In this document: one piece after another, positions 1 through 63,460 of the stretch
How the letters are laid out: every line of letters begins with the position of its first letter
Numbering within the stretch: position 1 is the first letter of the stretch
NCBI GenBank assembly: GCA_964016885.1
Contig: OZ024745.1
Location: 104,470,001 to 104,534,000, forward strand
Origin: Eledone cirrhosa
Taxonomy: Eukaryota
DNA: 64,000 nucleotides
Direction: 5' to 3'
Translations under genes and position numbers: made by a program
Notes under the pieces: model-generated
What the model was told of the DNA's origin: nothing
The model's database searches: none
What the model saw: the letters and a program-made list of their open reading frames with translations, nothing else

Positions 1-136
1 CATTACTGGTACTTTATTTTATCGACCCCGTAAGGATGAAAGGTAAAGTCAACCTCGGCGGGATTTGAACTCAGACCGTAAAGGGACGTAACTACGCCGG
101 AAAGCATGGCGTCCGACTCTCTACCGATACTGCCAA
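1..136 (-). mobile_element. SINE family A copy
   Basis: Reverse complement of the family A unit. Other copies near 10929, 12890, 14178, 29656, 55413 (+) and 61523-61700 (-). Confidence 0.85.
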
Positions 137-531
137 TAATACGTCATTAATAGGAGCGGTGAAAAACAATTACACGCAAAGACAGGACCACGTTTATGGT
201 ATAAAAGAAGTCGTAGACTAATGTTCTCTTAGGTGGTGCATAGAGACGTTCTCTGGCAATGAACGGAAAAAACGAAGATAATACGTCATATGTGGAGCGT
301 GGAGAAACAATTGCACACAAAGACAAAACCACGTAAATGGTATAGCTGAAGTCGTAGACTAAAATTCTAACTAGGAAACCGAATGATTCTCCACTTCAGA
401 GTTAAGAATAAAGTAAATACAATACAATACAGAGGTAATTGAAATGAAATAAATACATACACGCGTCCAAATACGTACATACACAAGCATACGCGAAAAC
501 ACTCGCCATAGGTATACAAAACCACGCACAT

Positions 532-1000
532 ATTGTTAGGAATACTTTGATTGTTAGGAATACTTTGATTGTTAGGAATACTTTGATGTTGTCAGCAGGA
601 ATAGTCTTGGTTCTCATTGGTCAGTGTGTGTGTGTCTGCGTGTATACAAATATATATATATATATAGTGACGAAACATAAGTCAATTGCATGAACTCATA
701 ATCCTTTATTTACTGCTATATATATTTCGATGATAGCCATTGAATTGCTAAGACCTCATCGGGCAGTTAGTCAGTTCTTAGATATGCCAGCTCTGTGTTT
801 ATAGTGTTGATGGTATCAGAGCCTTGGGACATATGAGCTTGTTAGGAATACTTTGATGTTGTCAGCAGGAATAGTCTTGATTCTCATTGGTCAGTTTGTA
901 GATGGTAGTAGGTTGGTATTTGACCTCAACGAGGCAGTTGGTTCTGTAAGGTTCAAACCGTCAGGCAAGATGACAATAGTTCCACATGACTGATTTTCAC
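532..1000 (-). mobile_element. Penelope-like 3' end with direct repeats flanking a degenerate hammerhead
   Basis: PDGLN motif (GIY-YIG C-terminus-like) near 955-968; ~57-bp direct repeat at 569-625 and 839-895; 18-bp tandem x3 at 532-587; HHR-like motif at 712-767. Confidence 0.5.
712..767 (-). ncRNA. Degenerate hammerhead (core CCGATGA)
   Basis: ACTGC-CCGATGA-G...TAGC/GCTA...C-GAAA-TATATA-TA-GCAGT. Confidence 0.6.
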
Positions 1001-1864
1001 AAAAGGCATTCTTGGTCAGATATATTTTCAAATAAGGTTAATAGTATGAAATAGATACTACAGGTCATTCTTAAATTGAGGAATTTATGTGGAGTGGTGC
1101 TACTGAAAATTATGGTTGGAGTAGAAAGTTTACAAATAAAAAGGCTTATGTAGGTTGGCTTGCACAACATTCACACCCATCTCCACAGACACACACACAC
1201 ACATCCACACATACAAAAAGTACGGTGGTAATACTTAATATAATGGTTAGAGTCCAATACTTAGATAGTTTAGAAAATTTTGAAATAAAAGGTTTATGCT
1301 GGTTCACTTGTACATACACTCACACCTAGCCCCTCAAACACTCACACATCTACACACACAAATCCATGCAGGTGTGTATATATATATATATGCATGCATG
1401 CATGCATGTACGCACAAGTATACACATATATATAAAATATATATATATACACAGAACATACATATACATAAAATATATACATACAAAATTATAAAAAATA
1501 TATATATACATAGAATACACACATACACACAAAATATATACACACGTAAAACATACATATATATATAAATACACACACACATATACACATATATATATAA
1601 AATATATACATACAGATACGCACACATATATAAAATACGCATACATACACATATAAAATACACATATATATACACATGATACATATATACATATATATAT
1701 AAAATCATTGTTTAGATGACTCCTAACCAGTAGAGGATCCGGTGGACCATCCACCATAGGGACCGCAAACTATGGGTGGTTGTTGTTGTCCATTGGTCAT
1801 TGGTACGGGGTGTAGGGGACCTACCCGGAGGGGGGGGGGGCTTGTGGGAGGCTGTAATCGGGGT

Positions 1865-2197
1865 TTATCCATATAGCTTGAGGAAAGTTCCCGTCCTTAG
1901 GTGTCTGCAGGCACCGAATAAGTCGGCCCTTCTGTTTAATAGCTTGGTTCCGCCATGAAGAATCTCGAGTGTCTCACTAAGACAGAGGTTGCAAATACCA
2001 GTCTCGCCTCTGTCTGGGGGAACCTTTCTAACCACGGACCAGACCAGAGAGTGCGGGGTCTTTTCAAGTTTGAGCTTCCAGATCAATTCAGAAAGGGCCG
2101 TACATTTCCTCTTATCTATTCTGTTAAAGGAATGGCGATGGTTATACTACCGAGCTTTGAAGCTCGTCGCTGTGGATCCTATGTAGTGGTGCTCCGC
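1865..2197 (-). mobile_element. Penelope-like element GIY-YIG endonuclease remnant
   Basis: HYIGSTATSFKAR*YNHRHSF...TALSELIWKLK...WSVV...CNLCLSETLEIL...LLNRRADLFGACRH; one in-frame stop; flanked by TA-rich microsatellites. Confidence 0.85.
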
Positions 2198-2201
2198 GTC
2201 A

Positions 2202-2237
<36 letters not shown>

Positions 2238-3667
2238 GTGCGCATCACATTATGGTCTGTTGCTTGTGAAGTAGATAAAAAGAAGCGCTCAACAACCTGT
2301 ATAAATAGTATTATAAATAGCATTATATATTAATAGCATTATATATTAATACAAATAGCATTATATATTAATACAAGATCGGAAGACCTATTCAGTTGAA
2401 TGACGTTTATTTAAAACTGAATCAACAGAATTTGGCCTCCGATCTTCTATTAATATATATATATAATTGTTTCAAATTTTGGCACAAGGCCACCAATTAC
2501 CCAGTACATTATAGTCTAATAATTAAAGAGACATTGAGAAAGAATGAGTACATTAGCAGTACATATGCAAGCGTGTAGGAAGTGCACATGCGTTAGTCAT
2601 ATATATGAGAAGGAAATAAGCAAAGGTATTATGCATATATAGATAAATAAATAAATAAATACTGTATGGTAAGCAAATATGTTAATGTATTAAAATTTAT
2701 GGCGGATGTTGAGAAAATCAAAGTTATTGTAGTCCTTTCCATTACATATGTTAAATTATATTTTAGTTAATGTTTATATTGAATGTTTTAAGTTAGTTAC
2801 AGCAATGGATTGTAAATTGGTCTTATTGTATTCTTATTCATGGATTCATGGATTAGAGTTGTTCAACAGTTTAATTTCCAACGGTTTAATTTCCGGAAGT
2901 GAGTATGAGATCCAAGATTAAGGGGAGCTAATGCGTAACGGGGGTAACTAGCTAGTTAAATTCAATTATTTAAATTCTTTGCTCTAATACACATTATAAT
3001 GTGATACAAGTGAATCTCTATTACATAATGTTATATATTTATACTTAATTTTAAATACAGTGTATTTTCCTATAATACATTAAAGGTCTCATTAGATTGT
3101 TATCTATCCATTACTGGACAAGATATATGTTATGGAAAATTGTATAGCTGTTTATATGTCTAAATAGTTAGATCATTTGTGTAATAATATACATTATTGT
3201 GTTAAAAGTTAATCCCTTATATATAATGGTATTAATTTATATATTTAATTATAAATGTATATATACTTTATTATTATTATATTGTGTTAAAAGTAAATCC
3301 CTTATATACAATGCTATTAATTTAAATATTTAATTATAAATGTATATATAATTTATTATTACCTATTACATTAAATGTCTCTACATATTATATATCCATT
3401 ACTGTATATAATATAATTAAGCTATAGTAGTTATATTAAAAGGTGGTAACTTTATGTTTAATTCTAATAGTTATTGTAGAGTATTTATTTACCTTCCATT
3501 AATTATATATTCAATTATTTACCCACCCCCATGAAACTCATTCACTGACTAACATTAGATATAGCTCTCTTGTTTTATATTAACTGTACTGGGACATACA
3601 TACTACATAATATAAAAATCTATATATTCTCATATTTTATCTTAGAGTATAAAATTATATTATATTC

Positions 3668-4046
3668 CATGTAGGTATCACGACACAAAGCGCACAGCCC
3701 ACACTGTAAAGTGGTCATGTAGGTATCACGACACAAAGCGCACAGCCCACACTGTAAAGTAGTCATGTAGGTATCACGGCACAAAGCGCACAGCCCACAC
3801 TGTAAAGTGGTCATGTAGGTATCACGGCACAAAGCGCACAGCCCACACTGTAAAGTGGTCATGTAGGTATCACGACACAAAGCGCACAGCCCACACTGAA
3901 AAGTGGTCATGTAGGTATCACGACACAAAGCGCACAGCCCACACTGAAAAGTGGTCATGTAGGTATCATGACACAAAGCGCACAGCCCACACTGTAAAGG
4001 GATCATGTAGGTATCACGACACAAAGCGCGCAGCATACACTGTAAA
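3668..4046 (+). repeat. 48-bp minisatellite, ~8 units, running into an RTE-type tail (to 4216)
   Basis: Unit CATGTAGGTATCACGACACAAAGCGCACAGCCCACACTGTAAAGTGGT at 3668, 3716, ... 4004. Confidence 0.95.
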
Positions 4047-4933: not shown

Positions 4934-5765
4934 ATACATATAGCAAGAAACCTTCAGTGTAAAGAAATTAATATACTTTTTATAAGCACACGCATTTCAT
5001 TATGATTAATACCATGGTTGATATATATATTATCTTGTAAAATAATATTTCCCGAAACACAACCAGGTTTGTTAGAATCTAATTCTATTGAAATGCCAAT
5101 AAAAGTTACTGAAATTTTCTCCTTTAGGTAAATTATTTGTGATTTTACTCTAAAATATGATTACTTAGGTACTATGTCAATTTAAACCATTCATAGTCTA
5201 TACTTATTAATACTTATTTAATCGATTTTGTAAGGGTGGAAGCCGATATACACTTGAAGTTGAGTCTGGCGGCGAAGTACCTGTAATGAGTTTATCATGA
5301 ACCAAACGGTTTATTCCGCGCGTAGCTTACATCATAATTAACTGTCAGATCCAATAAGAAATTCCAGTGAAGATAACTCTTCCTTCTAGATAAATCAAAG
5401 TTATTTCCCTTGTAATTTTTCCTCTGAATGTTTATGCAGTTGCGAGGAAGTACTAACCAACGAAGGCTCTATGCCAGTGATTCCCAACGTGGGTTGCACA
5501 CTCCATAGGGGAGCAATTTGAATATAATAGGAGGCAATTTGAAAGTGATATAATACGACCAAACTTCCAGTTACACTTCGTGTTAGTGCTGTCAATGACT
5601 TACTACTGAAAAAAAAGAAATCGACTGGATATCACAAAACGAGGAGATTTAAGGTTAAAACTAACTAAATAAGTGCCTCGAATAAAAACACTTTGTAACA
5701 TACGTCGAGCTGAAGGATCTCACAAAATGACTAACTTGCATTATTTTATCTTCAGCTCAGTGGAG

Positions 5766-7262
5766 GGCGGTGGATTGGCAGTATCGGTAGAGGGTCGGAC
5801 GCCATGCTTTCTAGCATAGTTACGTCCCTTTACAGTCTGAGTTCAAATCCCGCCGAGGTTAACTTTGCCTTTCATCCTTACGGGGTCGATAAAATAAAGT
5901 ACCAGTAATGTACTGGATATTTGCTGGCCTTGTGCCAAAAGTAGAAACAATTATTTTATCTTCGGCTCAGTGAGTTAAGTTGAACTTAAATTGGAAGAAA
6001 AAATTGTTTGCCTAATTTTTAGCTTTGTTTAATTAAAGGATTTCTACTTTATATTTCACTTTTACAAAACTCACTCTGTTTTTATATCTAAAGGAGACAT
6101 AAACATTTTTTTAGATGTTGAGGTGGGACATGGAGCAAAAAATATTGGGACAACTGCACTATGCGGTCATTCAACTTTCTAGAAATAATATACTCCTAGA
6201 TTTGACTGTATGTACAATTATGTTTGTATGTGTCTAACGTAAATTAGAAACATTATTATTAGTAGTGGTGGGCGGTGGATTGGCAGTATCAGTAGAGGGT
6301 CGGATGCCATGCTTTGAAGCATAGAGTTACCTCCCCTTTATGATCTGAGTTCAAATCCCACCGAGGTTAACTTTGCCTTTCATCCTTACGGGGTCGATAA
6401 AATAAAGTACCAGTCACACACTGGGGTCGATTTAATCGACTTTCCTCTCCCCCAAAAGTGCTGGCCTTGTGCCTATATAAGAAACCATTATTATTAGAGC
6501 ATAGTTACGTCCCTCTACGGTCTGAGTTCAAATTCCGTCGAGGTTAACTTTGCCTTTCATCCTTACGGGGTCGATAAAATAAAGTACCAGTAATATACTG
6601 AGTTATTGCTGGCCTTGTGCCTAAAGTAGAAACAATTATTATTAGTAGTGGCGGTGGATTGGCAGTATCGGTAGAGGGTCGGACACCATGTTTTATAGCA
6701 CAGAGTTACGCCCCTTTACGGTCTGAGTTCAAATCCCGCCGAGGTTAACTTTGCCTTTCATCCTTACGGGGTCGATAAAATAAAGTACCAGTAATGCACT
6801 CAGGTAATTGCTGGCCTTGTGCCAAAAGTAGAAACAATTATTATTAGTAGTATCGGTAGAGCGTCGGACAACATGGATTGTGATATATAGTTACGGCTCT
6901 TTACGTTCTGAGTTCAAATCATGCCGAGGTTAGCTTTGTCTTTCATTCTTACGGGGTCGATAAAATAAAGTTCCAGTAATGCACTGGGGTCAATTTAATC
7001 GACTTTCCCCTACCCCAAAATTGTTGGCCTTGTGCCTAAATCAGAAACCATTATTATTAAAGATTCCTAGGGTGGTGGATTGGCAGTATCGGTAGAGGGT
7101 CGGACGCCATGCTTTCCAGCATAGTTACCCTCTTTTACGATCTGAGTTCGAATCCCGCCGAGGTTGACTTTGCCTTTCATCCTTACGGGGTCGATAAAAT
7201 AAAGTACCAGTAATGCACTGGGTAATTACTGGCCTTGTGCCTAAAGTAGAAACAAATATTAT
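5766..7262 (+). mobile_element. Cluster/tandem array of six tRNA-derived SINE copies (family A)
   Basis: Unit GGCGGTGGATTGGCAGTATCGGTAGAG (A box)...GAGTTCAAATCCC (B box)...GCCTTTCATCCTTACGGGGTCGATAAAATAAAGTACCAG...GAAACAATTATT, starting near 5766, 6271, 6498, 6650, 6849, 7071. Confidence 0.9.
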
Positions 7263-7737
7263 TAAAGATTCCTTTCGGTCATCATTGATCATATATTTGT
7301 ACCTCGACAATCGCTCTCCCTGCTGCAGGTTGCCCATGCATGCAAGTCTCCCATCTCAATGTTACTGACGTTGCCTAAGAGAAAAGCAAGGGCCGATACA
7401 GCTTGTTGCCAGTGATGTCACATGTATGCTTAGAACACAAAAGCCTGATAGAGATACTGAAAGCTATCATATCCCACGTTCCAACAATTACACCAATCCA
7501 TCGTCCTGGACTGGTACTTTATTTATCGATCTGGAAAGGCTGAAAGCCAAAGTTGACATCGGCGAGATTTGAACTCAAAACACAAGGTACCTGAACACAT
7601 ACCGCAAAGCACTTTAATCCGAATGAAACAGTTCTAGTCCCGTTTTTCTATTATAAAATAATAAAGATCTCTATACTCTATTAACGAACTGAGTACCTTT
7701 TTTAACTGAGGTCCACTCCCTATATACAGCGGGAATC

Positions 7738-8737: not shown

Positions 8738-8828
<91 letters not shown>

Positions 8829-9009
8829 ATACAATAACAGAGATAGCTTAAAGCTAAACTCTGACTGGTAACCATCTCACTCAACAAACATTAGGTTATA
8901 TGTTAATATAAACCCAATTTAAGTGTTTGGGGTGCTAACTATATGTATTGTGTGGAAAGCCAGTTGTATTATTTTATGAGATATAATTAAAGTTAAAATA
9001 TATCTCTCT

Positions 9010-9134
9010 TTCCAAACAATTGTTTCATTATAAGTTTTCTACAAATTAGGAGATTGTTTCCAGTTTATGTAGAAGCCTAACATATATTCGTGTAAGAATA
9101 TATTTAGGTGGGTGCTTATAAATCATCAGTGGAA
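9010..9134 (-). ncRNA. Hammerhead with large branched stem II
   Basis: TTCCA-CTGATGA-T-TTATAAG[two hairpins]CTTATAA-T-GAAA-CAATTG-TT-TGGAA; palindromic stem III ACAATTGT. Confidence 0.72.
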
Positions 9135-9241
9135 GCCCATTAAACTTTGATATAAGAAAAAATTCTTACCGCAGTAAAAAATCGTGTCTGTTAAGCTGCT
9201 CCCTCACGCATCGAATGACCGCCAAATTTGAAATTCCAGCA

Positions 9242-9352
9242 GTTTTTGACTGAGGAAGTATTATAGCGTCACGAAGCGGGAAGGGGAGACAACTAATACA
9301 CGAGAAAAGAAAAAAATAATATTCACGCGGGTTAATTAGTTTTTTCAAAAAC
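9242..9352 (+). ncRNA. Extended hammerhead-like fold
   Basis: GTTTTTGA/TCAAAAAC 8-bp stem I; CTGAGGA at 9250; GTATTA/TAATAC stem II; A/T-rich stem III; 9-nt extra linker before GAAA. Confidence 0.35.
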
Positions 9353-9520
9353 ATTATCAATCCAACGTGTTAAGAACTCAATTGAAGTTAAAAAAATAAA
9401 TGCATGCGTGTATTAATTACACACGCATATAGATATTTTCTTAGGCTAAAAACAGAAGTCATATATATATATATATATATATAGAAAGATTTGAATGGAT
9501 ACAGTTTAGTTGAAAGGAAT

Positions 9521-9640
9521 TTATTGACACGTGTTTCTATAACAGTTACATAACCTAAAACAGCTGCTATCTACAAACTTTTAGTTATGCAGACATTCAA
9601 TATTTCAATGTTATTATTTACTGTCATTTCATCAGAATAA
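9521..9640 (-). ncRNA. Hammerhead with large branched stem II
   Basis: TTATT-CTGATGA-A-ATGACAGT[two hairpins]ACTGTTAT-A-GAAA-CACGTG-TC-AATAA; palindromic stem III ACACGTGT; GUC site. Confidence 0.75.
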
Positions 9641-9647
9641 TATTACT

Positions 9648-9691
<44 letters not shown>

Positions 9692-10077: not shown

Positions 10078-10213
10078 GTAATTCCGTCGGAAAAAGTCCA
10101 TGAAAAAAGAGTGCTCTATGTAGGTAAGAGAGCTTAATAGTTATGTAATAAACAACATAATGCAATTATTCAATTTTTAAAAAATCCAAGTTCAATAAAC
10201 AGACCAGGATTTT

Positions 10214-10271
10214 TTCATTCTGAGGATTGAAAGCAAAATTTTTTGCTTTTAAGAAACCACTGGTAAATGGA
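10214..10271 (+). ncRNA. Type I hammerhead ribozyme, intact core
   Basis: Stem I TTCATT/AATGGA; CTGAGGA (10220-10226); stem II TTGAAAGCAAA/TTTGCTTTTAA; GAAA (10253-10256); stem III ACC-ACT-GGT; GUA site after 10265. Confidence 0.85.
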
Positions 10272-10301
10272 ATAATTGCATTATGTTGTTTATTACATAA
10301 C

Positions 10302-10416
<115 letters not shown>

Positions 10417-15668: not shown

Positions 15669-15909
15669 ATGATACAGAAAAGCACAGTTCTTGGTATAGT
15701 GACTGTGTGACTCCTTCAATTCAATTAGCAGCTGGCAGTAAAACCCAAAGGTTTATTCAATGAAGATAATTTACTAATTACCAGGTATATCTGGTTTAAA
15801 ATAGGTACATCATATCTGTGTGTGATGTAAGAAGCTACTAAAAGGGTTAGTGTCAAGAAGGGTATGTGGCTCTAAAACATTGCCTCAAAAGGTCCTGTCC
15901 AACTCATGC
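15669..15909 (+). repeat. 241-bp near-identical duplicate of 13819-14059 at the LINE 5' junction
   Basis: Direct comparison: two mismatches seen, offset 1850 bp. Confidence 0.92.
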
Positions 15910-18900
15910 ACCACCATTATTACGTGGACCAATCATAAGTCAGAGACCCATACTATCGCTTAACTGGTTGCTTTTCGATATGATGGATGGACTACGGAAT
16001 TCTGGAGAGTTGAAGAGAGAAAAATGTGGACGCTCAGCGACAATGCCAAAGATAAAGCCAAATTCACCTCGTGGACGAGAATGCAAGCACTCCTCCTTGT
16101 TTCGGCCCAGGATGGCTAACATAACCCCCTCCCCCCCCGCGCCCCACCGCTCCCACCCTCCAAACGCAATCCAAAACTTCAGAGTTGGTACCATGAATGT
16201 AGGCACCTTAAAGGGTCGCTCTAACGAGGTTGTAGAAATGCTTGAACGTAAGGAGGTCGATGTTTGTTGTATTCAAGAGACCAGGTGGAGGGGAGGGTCG
16301 GCTAGATTCATCGTGGGTAAAGAACGATGCTATAAGCTTTTCTGGGTGGGAAATGACAATGGGTTGGGTGGGGTAGGAATCATGGTAGCAGAAAAGTGGG
16401 CAGATAAGATAATAGACGTAAATAGAGTGAACGACAGAATAATTAAAATAAGACTTGTCCTCAATAAAACTACGGTGACAGTAATATCTGCGTACGCACC
16501 CCAATCCGGACTGCCCGGCGCTATAAAAGACAGATTCTACGAGACACTGATGCTCGCTACCTCCCAAATAACCGACAGTGACTATATAGTTATTGCAGGC
16601 GACCTAAATGGTCACGTTGGACAACATTGTGACGGCTATGACGGAATCCATGGAGGCTATGGGTTCGGTACTAGAAATGAGGAAGGCTCCAGAATCCTGG
16701 AATTCTGCGACGCAAATAACTTAATTATCTGTAACACTAACTTCAAAAAAACGAGACAATCACTTGTCACGAGACAATCACCTATAGATCGGGGGAACAC
16801 ACAAGCCAGGTAGATTATATCCTTACCAGAAGACGTGACAGAGTGTCTGTTGTTAACACTAAATCCCACCCCCATGAAGAATTCACCTCCCAACATAGAC
16901 TGATAATTAGCGACCTCATAGTCAGGACGAGACGTACTAGACAGCGGAAGAGGACTATCCTCAGGAGAAAAATATGGAAGCTAAAGGACCCCATAGCCAG
17001 AAATAAATTTCAAAGCATATTACTTGACGCTTTCGACAGTAAGGAAGAGCAATTAGAGTCGTATAATATAGAGGAACAGTGGGAATTCCTGAGAGCAAAC
17101 CTGCTAACGGCGGCAGACGAAGTCTGTGGCTGGAGCAGGCCTGTAGGTAGGAGGAGAGTAACATGGTGGTGGAACAGTAAGGTGGAGGAGTCAATTAAGG
17201 CCAAAAAGCAGGCTTGGAAAGTATGGCGGGATGGGGGAAGTAGAGAAGACTATCAAGTGGCCAGGAGGGAAGCTAGGAGACAAGTGTACTTCGCAAGAAG
17301 GGAAGCAGAGGAAAGAAAGTTCAAGCATGTTCTACAACGTGAGGACCAAAAACGTGAGGTGTTCAGGATTGCCAGGCAATGTGTCAAGGAAAACCGTGAT
17401 ATTGTCGGGGAGAAGTGTGTACTTAACGATGATGGCATACTTGCCATCACCGACGCTGATAAGAAGGTAGCTTGGAAGTGTCACTACGAAAGGCTTCTAA
17501 ATGAGAAGAACAAATGGGAGAAAGACAGTCTCCCTCAGATCGATCCAATAGAGGGACCAGCAGTGTTAGTTGAAGGTAGTATAATAAGTAAGGCAATCAA
17601 AGATATGAAGACGGGTAAGGCGGCTGGGCCTTCGGAAATAGTTGCTGAGATGCTGAAGGCATCTGGTTTGGTGGGACACACCATGGTCACCCGGATAGTT
17701 AACCAAGTCGTACAGAATGGGGTTGTTCCGAAGGAATGGCGTAGCAGCATCATCGTTAACTGCTATAAGGGAAAAGGAGATGCCCTAGATAGGAGTAACT
17801 ATAGAGGCATTAAATTAATCGACCAGGTCATGAAGGTCACGGAAAAAGTAATAGCGCAACTAATCAGAGAGAGAATTGATCTAGATGAAATGCAGTTTGG
17901 GTTTGTGTCAGGCAAAAGTACCACAGACGCTCTTTTCATTGTACGACAACTACAGGAGAAGTACCTAGCTAAAAGTAAACCCCTATACTTAGCTTTCGTC
18001 GACTTGGAGAAAGCCTTCGACAGAGTCCCCCGTTCCATTATCTGGTGGTCTCTTAGAAAACTAGGTGTTGACGAATGGCTTGTGAGAGCTATACAAGCCA
18101 TGTATAAAGAAACAGTCAGTAAGGTTAGAATTAACAATGAATATAGTGAAGAGTTTAGCGTAAAAGTTGGTGTCCATCAGGGCTCTGTTCTTAGCCCCCT
18201 ACTATTTATTATTGCCCTTCAGGCTATAACAGAGGAGTTCAAGACCGGCTGCCCATGGGAACTCCTATACGCAGATGATCTAACGCTCATAGCTGAATCA
18301 GTGACCGAACTAGAGAAGAAATTCCAAACATGGAAGCACGGCCTAGAATCAAAAGGCCTTAAAATTAACCTGGCTAAGACTAAAGTTCTAGTTTGTAGGA
18401 AAGAAAATAAGGCGGCGGTCCCATCTGGGAAATGGCCATGCTCAGTGTGTAGGAAAGGCGTAGGTAGAAACTCCATTTTATGTCCCAAATGCAAAGTATG
18501 GGTGCATAAAAGATGTAGTGGGATCACAGGTAAGCTAACTAAGAACATAGATTTTACATGTGGCCGGTGCTCTGGTGCAATAAGTAGCAGCAAGTGCCCA
18601 CAAAATACTAGCTCCTTCAACTGCACAGAGGGTTCTATAGAAATAGTGGACAGCTTCCGTTATCTGGGTGACAAAATCAGCAGTGGGGGAGGGTGCTCTG
18701 AAAGTACAGTAGCTAGAGTCAGAACTGGATGGATAAAGTTCAGAGAGCTTATACCACTATTAGCCGCTAGAGGGTTCTCCCTAAAAATGAAAGGCAGGTT
18801 ATACGATGCCTGCATATGAACAGCAATGCTGCATGGCAGTGAGACCTGGGCATTGTGTGCAGAGGATATACACAGACTAGAGAGGAACGAAGCTTGCATG

Positions 18901-26156: not shown

Positions 26157-26496
26157 TCAGTCGTTGGATTTTTTCCTAGGTGGACGGAAAATAGTGCCAA
26201 CAATAAAAAATACTATGATAGTTATATGTCCAATAAAATATATAGATGACCAGTAACGGACTGTATCGTGCCAAGAAAGTAAAAGGAAGCCCATGCAATT
26301 ATAATCAAATCCCCGCATTCGAAAAAACCAGCACACACCATCAAATAATTTTTGTTTTATCGTAGGTTGTTCATCTCTAAATGCTGCTATCATAACTCGT
26401 TCAGCCATCAGTATTGGAGGAACTGTGAGGAAGCTCATGTAGTATCCTGGGTCGACGCCATGCCAGTAAGCACTAACAGCCATTGTCAGAAATACT
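26157..26496 (-). CDS. MBOAT7: MBOAT7-like last coding exon with catalytic His (SAYWHG) and TGA stop
   Basis: tttcAG|A GTA TTT CTG ACA ATG GCT; AVSAYWHGVDPGYYMSFLTVPP...FDYNCMGFLLLSWHDTVRYWSSIYF; stop at 26157-26159. Confidence 0.96.
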
Positions 26497-26995
26497 CTGA
26501 AATGGAGAAAAAAAAAAAAAAAAAATGAATGAAGAGTTGTAGTTATTTATGCTTTTTGTAATTATCACTAGTTGTTTTTTTTATGAACAGAATAAGTATT
26601 TCTTCACCAAATATTGACAAAACTATGTATGTATTTATGTATGTATGTATGTGTGTGTGTATGCATGTATGATCGGTGTCTCCATTGAATTAGTATGCCC
26701 TGAGTGTGGAAAGGTGTGCTTGAGTAAATCTGGTCTCAAGAGCCACAGTCATGTTCAGAGAGAACTATGAACTATGATCTCCATGGTATTGCAAGATGTA
26801 ATGAATGCAGCAAAGAATGTCGATCTGTAGCAGGACTGAAGTGGCAACCTGATGCCAAGGAGATATATAGTTGTTGTCAATGTGCCATGGAGTGCAAGTC
26901 TCTAACAGGCCTGAAAAGCCATATCCAAGTGTCACTCATGTGAATTTGACAAGCAATTGCAATACTTTTAGTGTGAGTTTGCAGCCATCATGTAT

Positions 26996-27140: not shown

Positions 27141-28235
27141 AGTGGGATCACAGGTAAGCTAACTAAGAATATAGATTTTATATGTGGCCGGTGCTCTGGT
27201 GCAATAAGTAGCAGCAAGTGCCCATAGAATACTAGCTCATTCCATTGCACAGATGGTACTATAGAAATAGTGGACACCTTCCGTTACCTGGGTGACAAAA
27301 TCAGCAGTGGGGGAGGGTGTTCTGAAAGTACAGTAGCTAGAGTCAGAACGGGATGGAAAAAGTTCAGAGAGCTTATACCACTATTGGCCGCTAAAGGGTT
27401 CTCTCTAAATATGAAAGGCAGGCTGTATGATGCCTGCATACGAACAGCGATGTTACATGGCAGTGAGACCTGGGCATTGTGTGCAGAGGATATACGCAGA
27501 CTGGAGAGAAACGAAGCTTGCATGCTCCGCTGGATGTGTAATAGTAATATACGTGAACGGCAAAGCATAAACGAACTAAGGGAGAAATTAGGAATAAGAG
27601 GGATCAGATGTTGTTTACTCGAGAGAAGACTACGTTGGTATGGTTACGTGATGCGCATGAAAGACGACAGCTGTATAAAAAAGTGCAGGGCGATAAAAAT
27701 AGACGGTAGCCACGGAGTAGGCAGAGCCAGAAAAACCTGGGATGACTTGATAAATTCCGACCTCACACACTTACACCTCTCCAAGACAATGTCACTGGAC
27801 CAAGATCTTTGGCGCTACAGTCATACAGAAGACACGCCTTGCCTAAGTACAAAGCGAAACCTAGTCAGTAGGCACCTCTAACAAAATACACCCTCCCCAT
27901 CCCACTACTCCCACCCCATCCACACCACCCCCTTAAATGTGAAGTTATGTTGGTACCACAACATCCAGTTCGAAACAAATGAGGTCGTGTAGGTGTCACG
28001 ACAAAAAAACACACAGTCCACGCTGTAATGTGGCCGTGTAGGTAACACGGTAAAAACCTCCCAGTCCACACTGTAAACGTGGTTGGTGTTAGGAAGGGCA
28101 TCCAGCCGTAGAAAACCCGCCAGACAGTCCTATACGAGCAGGACAACAAATCTTGCCTCAAGTGGGAAAACTCCCGTCCAAACCCATGCAAGCGTGGAAG
28201 ATGGACGTTAAACGATGATGATGATGATGATGATG
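27141..28235 (+). mobile_element. 5'-truncated copy of the same RTE family in the last MBOAT7 intron (antisense to gene)
   Basis: Closely matches 18517-19731. (GAT)n tail. Candidate TSD ATGAATT at 27134-27140 and 28233-28239. Confidence 0.93.
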
Positions 28236-29309
28236 AATTCTAAATACAAATTTCAGACTGTTTTTGACAGATTGTAGCATATGTGTGTGACAGATAGACA
28301 AACAAAACATCATTGGCTGTCTTTGAGTCGCAAGTTTTACAGCAGAGTTTTCTCAGAGTTTTCCTTCTAGAATGATATCCAAACAAGAACTAGGGGCCTC
28401 TCTCCCTCTGCCCCCCCCCCCCCACACACACATACACACTTTCTAGGAGGTTGTTATATTTCTCACATAAATGAAAACATTTTTCAACCCATTGTTTGAG
28501 AAGTTTAGTATGGCTGGTTGCCCTTCCTATCGCTAACCATTGTGTAATAGGTCTATTTTATCATGGCCCCAGCACTAAGGAGTTAGCTGATAATTGACTT
28601 GACTGAAGAGTCCTCCCTACCCTATAAGGAAGAAGTGGCATAGAAAGAATGTTATGGGTGTGGTTGAGGGAGGTTGTGATCTAGGATAGTGAGGGGTATA
28701 GTGATGATGTAAGCATCTATGAAGGAATTAAGACTGGTGCCTTAGAATATAAATGGGGTGCAGGTGGTTCATGGTAGGGTTTGGGAAGAACAGTGAGGGT
28801 GAGGATAGTTACAATGGATGTGGGGAGGAATGTGGATGTGTTGGGCCCAAACCAACACAGTCTTCTCTCTTGCACACTACACAGGATTTCTCTTATGATT
28901 ACTTTTTCTCTCAGTTCACTTATACAGCCATGTTCAAAAACAATAACATCACATATCCAACAGATCATATTAGCCTCATTTTGTTCTAACCCTTGCTGAT
29001 CTTCTGCAATCAAATAGCACCTAGTCCACCCTGTAAGGTTGTTGTGCTGGTGCCATGATAAAAAGTACCCAGTCTACTCTGTAAGGTTGTCATGGTGGTA
29101 CCACAATAAATAGCACCCATTCCATGCTATAAGGTTGTTGTACAGATGGCATAACAAAAAGAACCCTGTCCATCTTGTAAGGTTGTCACCATTAGGAAGA
29201 GTAGCCATGCCAAAAAACCTATCGTATGAGGAAGATGCAATCACTTCACTTGTCTGACCCCAAAAATAGACATCAAACAGTGATGATGATGATGATGTTG
29301 ATAACTTAC

Positions 29310-62054: not shown

Positions 62055-63460
62055 GCATCATCATCATCGTTTAACATTCATTTTTCCATGCTAGCATGGG
62101 CTACACGAGTTGTCCTTTTATGAAACTGTGACTTGCTCATACAGAAATATTTCTGGCTTGGTTTCTATGGCTGAATGCACTTCTTAAAGTCAACCACATT
62201 TACTGTGTGGACTGAGTGCTTTATGTCATGTCACCAAGGTTGGGCTGTGTGCTTTTTGTTATGTCACCATCATGACCACTTTACAGAGTGGACTAGGCAT
62301 TTATTGTCATGTAGCTGCCATAACCACTCTGCAGGGTAGACTGGATGGCTTTGTTGTGTCAATAACATAATCACCTTACAGAGCAGACAGGATGTCCTTT
62401 TTGTGTCACAAACCTGACCACTCAACAGGGTGAACTAGGTACCTTCTGTCATGCCACAAACACAACTACTTTACAAAGTGGACTGGGTGCCTCATGCCAC
62501 ATCCTCAACCTTACAGGGTGGACTGGATGCTTTATTTGTCATGTCACCAGCACAACTACCTTGCAGGGAGGCCTAGGGGCTCTTTTGTCATATTACCTTA
62601 CAAGGAAGACAAGGTGCTCTTTTGTCATGGCACCAACATGAGCATCTTACATGGTGAACTAGGGGCTTTTGTTGTGTTACCAGTATGACAATCTTACAAG
62701 GTGGACTGAGAGCTTTCAGCCACCCCAGCAGCACTGTAAGGGAGCTTTCCATCTTGTATACATGAATTGGTAAAGAGAGGTGCATCAGATGTGGGAAATG
62801 GTGGTGGGGAAGGGGTGTGTGTATGTAGGGTGATGATTGGAGAGGTAGGTCTAGAGTGGGGTAGGGGTTGCTTGTATGCAGGGTGGTCATTGGAGAGGTA
62901 GTTCTAGGGTGGGGGTACTTAGTTGGTGAAGGGTGGAGTGTTAAGACATAGGAGGAGTATAGAAGGGAGAGAAGTGATGCATACAAGAGACCACTAGATG
63001 TTGCTTCATCCCATTCACATAAAAAGGCAGGTCTTCTGCAGTACTGTACAACACCAGAGATAGCGATCCTGTGTCATCACCTTTGAGAAGGGTAATAGTC
63101 TGAGGTCAGCTTCTATCACCTTGTCCCAAATTTTTCCTAGTTCTTCCTATTCCATAGCTTCCATCAACTTTGAGCAGCCTGCACCTTTTTATACAGCTGT
63201 CATCCTTCATATGTATCACATGTCCATACCACCACAATCTTTTCTCCTGCACACTGCATCTGATCCCACTTATGTACAGTTTCTCTCTTAGTTCATTTAC
63301 GCTTTACCAGTCATGTTTATTACTATTACACATCTATCGGAGCATGCAAGCTTCATTTCTTTCCAGTCTTCATAGGTCCTCTACACACAGCACTCAGGTA
63401 TTGCTGCCATGCAGCATTGCTGGTCGTATACAAACATCATACAATCTGACCTTCATTTTG
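62055..63460 (-). mobile_element. Older, diverged RTE 3' fragment with modular tandem-repeat 3'UTR
   Basis: Minus strand reads RLYDVCIRPAMLHGSNT*...RLERNEACMLR, followed by ~41-bp modules (62200-62720) and a (GAT)n tail near 62077-62090. Confidence 0.8.

Follow-up and report, generated by a model that had tools for sequence, protein, structure and literature searches.

Adjacent repeat pieces with predicted type I hammerheads of long stem II, one of them branched, in the genome of Eledone cirrhosa

Type I hammerhead ribozymes of minimal size are found in Penelope-like elements (PLEs), where slow cleavage in vitro has been described (Cervera and de la Pena, 2014, PMC4209133), and the descriptor given in the supplement to that work allows a stem II of 3-7 bp with a loop of 3-10 nt. 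In the study of Craig et al. (2021, PMC8557442), an octopus member of the Hydra clade is listed, namely Hydra-1_Obim, and the longest loop-2 entries of file S2, at about 30-35 nt, belong to spike-moss elements. The same source mentions “half cores” with a 35-50-nt spacing in Naiad; these hint at earlier glimpses of motifs with a long stem II. Metazoan non-LTR retrozymes have been proposed to be non-autonomous PLE derivatives (PMC7229834; bioRxiv 10.64898/2026.07.22.740005). In pseudoknotted hammerheads, Watson-Crick pairing keeps stems I and II parallel, replaces loop-loop contacts and speeds cleavage (Perreault et al., 2011, PMC3088659). Full-text literature searches brought up no title or abstract opening that mentions a PLE hammerhead with a branched stem II or one above 80 nt, and Arkhipova 2017, Lunse 2017, Repbase and further supplements might bear on this point.

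The stretch of DNA considered here (hereafter the window) spans 64,000 nt of a 3.0-Gb genome in which TA microsatellites are abundant. Within the window, two repeat pieces lie side by side on the minus strand, i.e., (i) a piece of family A (8822..9463), which is 5'-truncated and retains 642 nt of a ~980-nt non-coding tandem unit, and (ii) a piece of family B (9481..9660), which corresponds to 180 nt of the pseudo-LTR (pLTR) of a Hydra-type PLE with (TA)n on either side. The family A piece shares 96% identity with the unit of array L067, and its 3' end is the usual one for the family and abuts a (TA)n tract (8740..8825) that is the likely insertion target; a second tract (9654..9688) borders the family B piece on its 5' side, and a short TA run (~9461-9480) separates the two. 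Beyond simple repeats, blastn comparison of family A with E or B families returned no homology, and families A and B are likely unrelated high-copy repeats, neighbours here through probably separate insertions. Both pieces carry a predicted self-cleaving hammerhead, and we consider it quite probable that the hammerhead of the family B piece derives from a PLE and is unbranched, and that the one of the family A piece derives from a repeat probably dependent on Penelope and has a branched stem II. Elements of families A and B went unreported by Tandem Repeats Finder and a general repeat search; stretches of both, in small shares only, are present in contigs from two DNA sequencing runs bearing other organism labels, and a metagenome pattern search for related elements gave 84 matches with 0 confirmed.

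Scanning of the window with a hammerhead descriptor retrieved three type I hammerheads, at 9129 (minus strand, stem II domain of 96 nt), 9635 (minus strand, 91 nt) and 10220 (plus strand, 26 nt), all within less than 1.3 kb. Motif 1 (9010..9134) is composed of stem I (9134-9130/9014-9010), the core (9129-9123), stem II (9121-9115/9034-9028), GAAA (9026-9023) and a palindrome (9023-9016), with a cut predicted from the hammerhead consensus at 9015/9014, and exhibits U.U at the first position of stem II. Motif 2 (9521..9640) exhibits A.A at this position and is composed of the core (9635-9629), stem II (9627-9620/9546-9539) followed by one long irregular hairpin, and a palindrome (9534-9527), with a predicted cut at 9526/9525. 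For both motifs, the cores, stems I-III, mismatches and 8-nt palindromes are found where the first-pass annotation had placed them on the minus strand. The type I features are all present, namely a CUGANGA plus GAAA core, an NUH site, three stems and an open stem I, together with the short stem I, 7-8-bp helix II and palindromic helix III of PLE minimal hammerheads; on these sequence features, motifs 1 and 2 are type I hammerheads with intact cores for which self-cleavage is predicted. The stem III palindromes have a pairing energy of about -12 kcal/mol as dimers and about 0 as monomers. While CTGATGA alone occurs at chance level in the window (11 against 10.65), the full motif is beyond chance, its descriptor having given 348 matches versus 0 in the reversed sequence over 1.29 Mb of partly overlapping loci, the complement version being the identical control and not a second one.

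With a published loop of 3-10 nt and stem II domains of 96 and 91 nt, both motifs fall outside the descriptor for PLE hammerheads, and Rfam returned no match at the gathering threshold and no hammerhead among the 27 matches at E<=10; as such, the expectation that length-limited searches would miss them is borne out by a descriptor confined to 3-7 bp and by Rfam alike. An unpaired first position of stem II had also been presented as part of the shared architecture and is indeed present in both window copies, but it is not a fixed trait, being ruled out as such by Watson-Crick pairs in 8/27 family A representatives and 9/12 family B rows. The same annotation had overlooked that both motifs belong to high-copy repeats.

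Several other features occur in the window. The third hammerhead (10214-10271, plus strand, stem II of 26 nt) lies within an imperfect inverted repeat (10137-10304), and a fragment of a Hydra-type endonuclease frame is located at 1871-2194 (minus strand), with no hammerhead detected behind it. A LINE-like element (15851-18819, plus strand) has an endonuclease-like frame, an RT and a PHD-like finger, with 3' pieces of it at 27228-27881 (plus strand) and 63132-63459. Also present are what is likely the final coding exon from a gene for an MBOAT acyltransferase (26157-26546, minus strand), SINE-like repeats clustered at 5764-7270 with further copies scattered, and a 48-nt tandem family (3668-4046, 27978-28076 and 29012-29186). 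Among the collected loci, L075 bears an LTR-retroelement-like copy (76-2959, plus strand) in which protease, RT, RNase H and integrase-like frames were recognised by eye.

The stem II domain of motif 1 opens into a three-way junction made of hairpin a (9076..9108, minus strand) and hairpin b (9037..9074, minus strand). The two hairpins announced by the first-pass annotation were obtained in 1,898 of 2,000 sampled folds of motif 1 and in 77/77 distinct stem II domains of family A, a family whose exact pattern has 2,468 matches in the genome against 0 in the reversed sequence. In an alignment of 27 representatives (<96% identity, out of 78 distinct sequences), the branched structure pairs 90.3% of cells, against 36-44% when slid, and RNAalifold recovered both hairpins unprompted. 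Two-sided changes affect 13 of the 39 pairs, every helix being represented, e.g., 6/13 pairs in hairpin a (84% of cells paired), the inner part of which is unevenly aligned across representatives, and 2/7 pairs in the outer helix of hairpin b (97% paired); as a counterweight, most of these changes require no more than 1-2 events when mapped on a tree built from the 3' flank. The palindromes of stem III covary too (A-U in 14 and G-C in 12 of the 27), and 10 core columns are invariant, an invariance that is biased because 134 matches had been chosen for their intact core.

The junction further extends to A', an older and decayed branched kin of family A (loci L332-L361; 56 candidates). The covariance model of family A matched, with E=5e-7, a divergent locus that proved to be a member of A', and it matches 18 of 30 A' loci at E<=0.1; in 30 decayed copies of A' stem II and both hairpins are kept with other sequences, at 86-90% paired per helix. 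Since A' keeps the junction despite different helix sequences, the three-way junction is well supported for both A and A'; as judged from the alignments, a covariation-backed two-hairpin three-way junction is likewise well supported as the structure of the motif 1 stem II.

For motif 2, the same junction of two hairpins had been drawn, as the expression of a structural subclass conserved between the two motifs. Two hairpins can be drawn there, and across 12 family B rows this drawing pairs 94.6% of cells, its hairpin 1 tolerating three one-sided changes. With the core held open, however, its energy is -14.7 kcal/mol compared with -22.3 kcal/mol for a single hairpin, i.e., worse by 7.6 kcal/mol, and out of 2,000 sampled folds 1,990 show one hairpin and 0 show two. 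In the second hairpin of the drawing, two pairs are broken in 8 and 9 of the 12 rows, whereas 99.1% of cells stay paired with the single hairpin; single-hairpin folding is also the outcome for 15/15 family B domains and for 11/11 long domains (85-116 nt) outside families A and B (2/2 in B2, 8/8 in C and 1/1 in D). The compensatory changes that homologues were expected to show exist in family A, in all helices, but not in the 12 rows of family B, where two-sided changes are absent under either fold, so that the case for an unbranched domain rests on energy and breakage. From this modelling, an unbranched domain with one long hairpin is the best reading of motif 2, and a conserved two-hairpin junction shared by both motifs appears very improbable. 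What stands of the proposed subclass is its retention in A and A', motif 2 being read as unbranched and unmatched by the family A covariance model at E<=1.

The exact pattern of family B has 2,481 matches in the genome versus 0 in the reversed sequence, and in 6/7 family B regions examined, flanking ORFs of 342-697 aa are present. The family B ORF contains RWK, DKT, YRDD, CxCx5C and a YVGST endonuclease motif (RT plus GIY-YIG), and CxxC and CxH of a C-terminal GIY-YIG were read by eye. At locus L063, the family B motif occurs in sense on both sides of a long ORF, plus as an inverted 5' copy, and the family inserts in (TA)n with a pLTR and an inverted 5' copy. Comparison of the ORF with Pfam gave no family at E<=0.1, and 62 related proteins, mostly unnamed, share 30-44% identity with it; the clade call thus rests on motifs and look-alike proteins. 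On this reading of the sequences, family B is an autonomous Hydra-type PLE, motif 2 being its predicted pLTR hammerhead. Copies of family B, including that of L063, have their 3' end at either of two places, 54 nt or ~163-167 nt past GAAAC, and the resulting “tail” of ~110 nt compares with the 30-40 bp stated for PLEs in PMC8557442. Hammerheads of a related kind, termed B2, occur at 2216-2336 (minus strand) and 7244-7365 (plus strand) of locus L099, which adjoins the window; their stem II is unbranched and 90-91 nt long, and one of them sits behind a Hydra-type ORF ~70% identical to that of family B.

Across the collected loci, 29 hammerhead clusters have stem II domains of 13-116 nt, to which a doubtful 147-nt singleton adds, and in this genome stem II length varies continuously over that 13-116-nt range. 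Given how the domains of this census fold, a long stem II is a general trait of these elements, and only A and A' show branching. B2, like one of the C copies, is located 600-730 nt past a Hydra-type endonuclease frame. Family C hammerheads (L017, L011, L068, L192, L194, L240, L250 and L253) have an unbranched stem II of 97-116 nt that recurrently starts with a mismatch, 2 bp and a mismatch, and one C-family variant contains a plain internal duplication.

Family A units are non-coding, with no similarity to 64 PLE-type proteins, and form head-to-tail arrays with one type I hammerhead per unit. In 111 copies, i.e., distinct contexts in a non-random sample where one array is counted more than once, (TA)n lies 174-211 nt downstream of the ribozyme in 86, the 5' ends are variable and a same-strand neighbour is found at 697-1009 nt in 25. 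Fixed 3' ends combined with varying 5' ends are the pattern expected under target-primed reverse transcription. Among the 150 candidates scored out of ~59,800, none was found to be an autonomous partner of family A, and 50 Hydra-type endonuclease loci together with L200 and L201 exhibit no continuous link to it. Of the candidate pairs L015/L200 and L091/L201 and the locus L247, L200 and L247 are inserted in TA tracts and L201 is without link; L188, L200 and L247 proved to be nested insertions, L184 a segmental duplication, and in the Neptune-like family of L062 the hammerhead-like end is a distinct one. Family A is likely a non-coding parasite, namely a non-autonomous repeat dependent on Penelope. 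A very young PLE family (L100-L129) has open frames of up to ~1,200-1,300 codons at 100% identity and, at its 3' end, a hammerhead core with an apparent long stem III.

In families where a stem II of 6-7 bp opens to a loop or junction, the strand following stem II complements the leader preceding stem I. This complementarity of 4-7 bp, the sequence of which differs by family, recurs in six E families, which are mostly non-coding tandem units of ~480-570 nt with a stem II of 48-56 nt (L282-L331, L054, L056 and L255); the genome contains 13,224 matches to a pattern with a 46-58-nt domain, against 25 in the reversed sequence. Once three rows with truncated flanks and flanks with TA runs are excluded, mean complementary runs are 4.0-6.6 bp in E1-E6 and 4.1 bp in A, versus 3.0-3.5 bp in B, B2, C and H, and the purine-rich E leaders pair across E families too. 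In 29 sequences of E1, 94.5% of cells are paired over the five pairs of the candidate pseudoknot; A-U takes the place of G-C in 5/29 rows at one pair and in 1 row at another, the former change requiring up to 4 events when traced on a 200-nt-flank tree that may overcount them. Such a pseudoknot is judged likely in the E families on the basis of these alignments.

In motif 1, the candidate strands are 9135..9139, immediately upstream of stem I, and 9109..9114, the junction strand after stem II (both minus strand), and 4 bp would be retained in the window copy. Across the family A representatives, 77% of the cells are paired and the three central G-C pairs are kept in 24-26/27 rows, with two-sided change in 0/6 pairs; conservation of the strands reaches 0.94 compared with 0.58-0.68 for three other unpaired stretches, another loop strand being at 0.81. 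The commonest variant pairs no better than shuffles (P=0.47), an all-against-all scan of family A columns was dominated by relatedness, and in A' 79% of cells are paired versus 22-49% when slid. In motif 2 and families B2, C, H1 and H2, the pairing is not above background. As such, the pseudoknot is plausible in family A, and it would lend indirect support to the tertiary-contact role once suggested for the insert.

Regarding the way these elements may operate, transcripts of tandem units or of pLTR-ORF-pLTR arrangement would bring two hammerheads to pair via the palindromic stem III, and the paired hammerheads would cut the transcripts to unit length. A PLE protein would then reverse-transcribe the units into (TA)n, acting in trans on family A. 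A long stem II would be tolerated given its orientation away from the core, and the family A junction strand may pair with the stem I leader, thereby replacing the usual contact of loop 1 with loop 2.

The long domains could otherwise be neutral expansions, through local duplication in AT-rich RNA, whose folding is kept only to spare the core, in which case neither branch nor leader complementarity would have a role. While the length continuum, the internal duplication of the C-family variant, the variable loop sequences and the lack of covariation in the family A pseudoknot are all in line with such expansion, the junction is kept from the much older A' to A, the candidate pseudoknot strands are more conserved than the other unpaired strands compared, and the leader-loop complementarity recurs with different sequences in the six E families; the neutral account is rather unlikely to be right. 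It could also be that the motif is retained chiefly as a structured site for PLE-protein binding or template handling, with slow or dispensable cleavage. The poor cleavage of published PLE hammerheads in vitro (PMC4209133), the protein requirement of an Anolis PLE hammerhead, whose cleavage is dispensable for in vitro insertion (PMC11167929), and the first-pair mismatch of both window copies would fit with it; against it count the invariant core columns of family A, subject to the bias toward intact cores, and the covarying pseudoknot of E1, which suggests that an active fold is tuned. A role of this sort, essentially in binding, is deemed unlikely, the more so of the two. Returning to the preferred reading, i.e., two adjacent pieces with predicted self-cleaving hammerheads, it can tentatively be carried further: more than 15,000 copies may represent an undescribed class of animal hammerheads in which the loop or junction of a long stem II pairs with the stem I leader, cleavage is efficient and the extra hairpins are recognised by a helper Penelope protein, a proposal we see as possible and still short of an even chance.

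As the published PLE descriptor tops out at a stem II of ~24 nt, thousands of the hammerhead copies of this genome would escape it and be invisible to such a search, and where elements have been described as devoid of a hammerhead, this ceiling may in some cases be the reason. If the proposed class is real, long-stem-II pseudoknotted hammerheads are systematically missing from animal hammerhead counts. Family A offers a branched hammerhead of natural origin, and family E adds a pseudoknot that covaries; simple cleavage assays would suit both, and the two families bear on whether and how the slow hammerheads of Penelope type gain activity in cells.

With respect to the PLE hammerheads of Cervera and de la Pena (2014), as far as their descriptor and motif descriptions go, the present motifs are alike in their type I core, stem I of 4-5 bp, helix II of 7-8 bp, a helix III whose palindrome implies dimers, and locations in pLTRs and solo truncated copies; motif 2 lies in a PLE pLTR as in that work, and for motif 1 no ORF-bearing partner was found. 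They differ in loop 2, of 3-10 nt in the descriptor against a domain of 91-96 nt here, branched in family A, and in the conserved G10.1-C11.1 pair, in place of which the window copies have U.U or A.A. Family B shares with Hydra-clade PLEs as described in PMC8557442 the RWK, DKT and CxCx5C motifs and the C-terminal GIY-YIG, in addition to (TA)n targets, a hammerhead near the 3' end and inverted 5' copies, but the Hydra hammerhead loops of file S2 are of 3-10 nt, in contrast to the 91-nt hairpin of family B. Like the metazoan non-LTR retrozymes of PMC7229834 and bioRxiv 10.64898/2026.07.22.740005, family A consists of non-coding head-to-tail units with a type I hammerhead; its units of 697-1009 nt compare with ~300 nt in the former source and 51-972 nt in the latter, and unlike in retrozymes, most of its copies are solitary and 5'-truncated and their stem II is giant and branched; the family is known here from DNA. 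The U10.1.U11.1 mismatch of motif 1 is also described by Perreault et al. (2011, PMC3088659), whose pseudoknot involves loop I and a stem II tail and is mostly microbial, whereas the candidate partner here is an internal loop or three-way junction within a long stem II, in hammerheads of animal retroelements. Compared with known PLE hammerheads, what appears new is how large stem II is, together with the junction of family A and the candidate pseudoknot.
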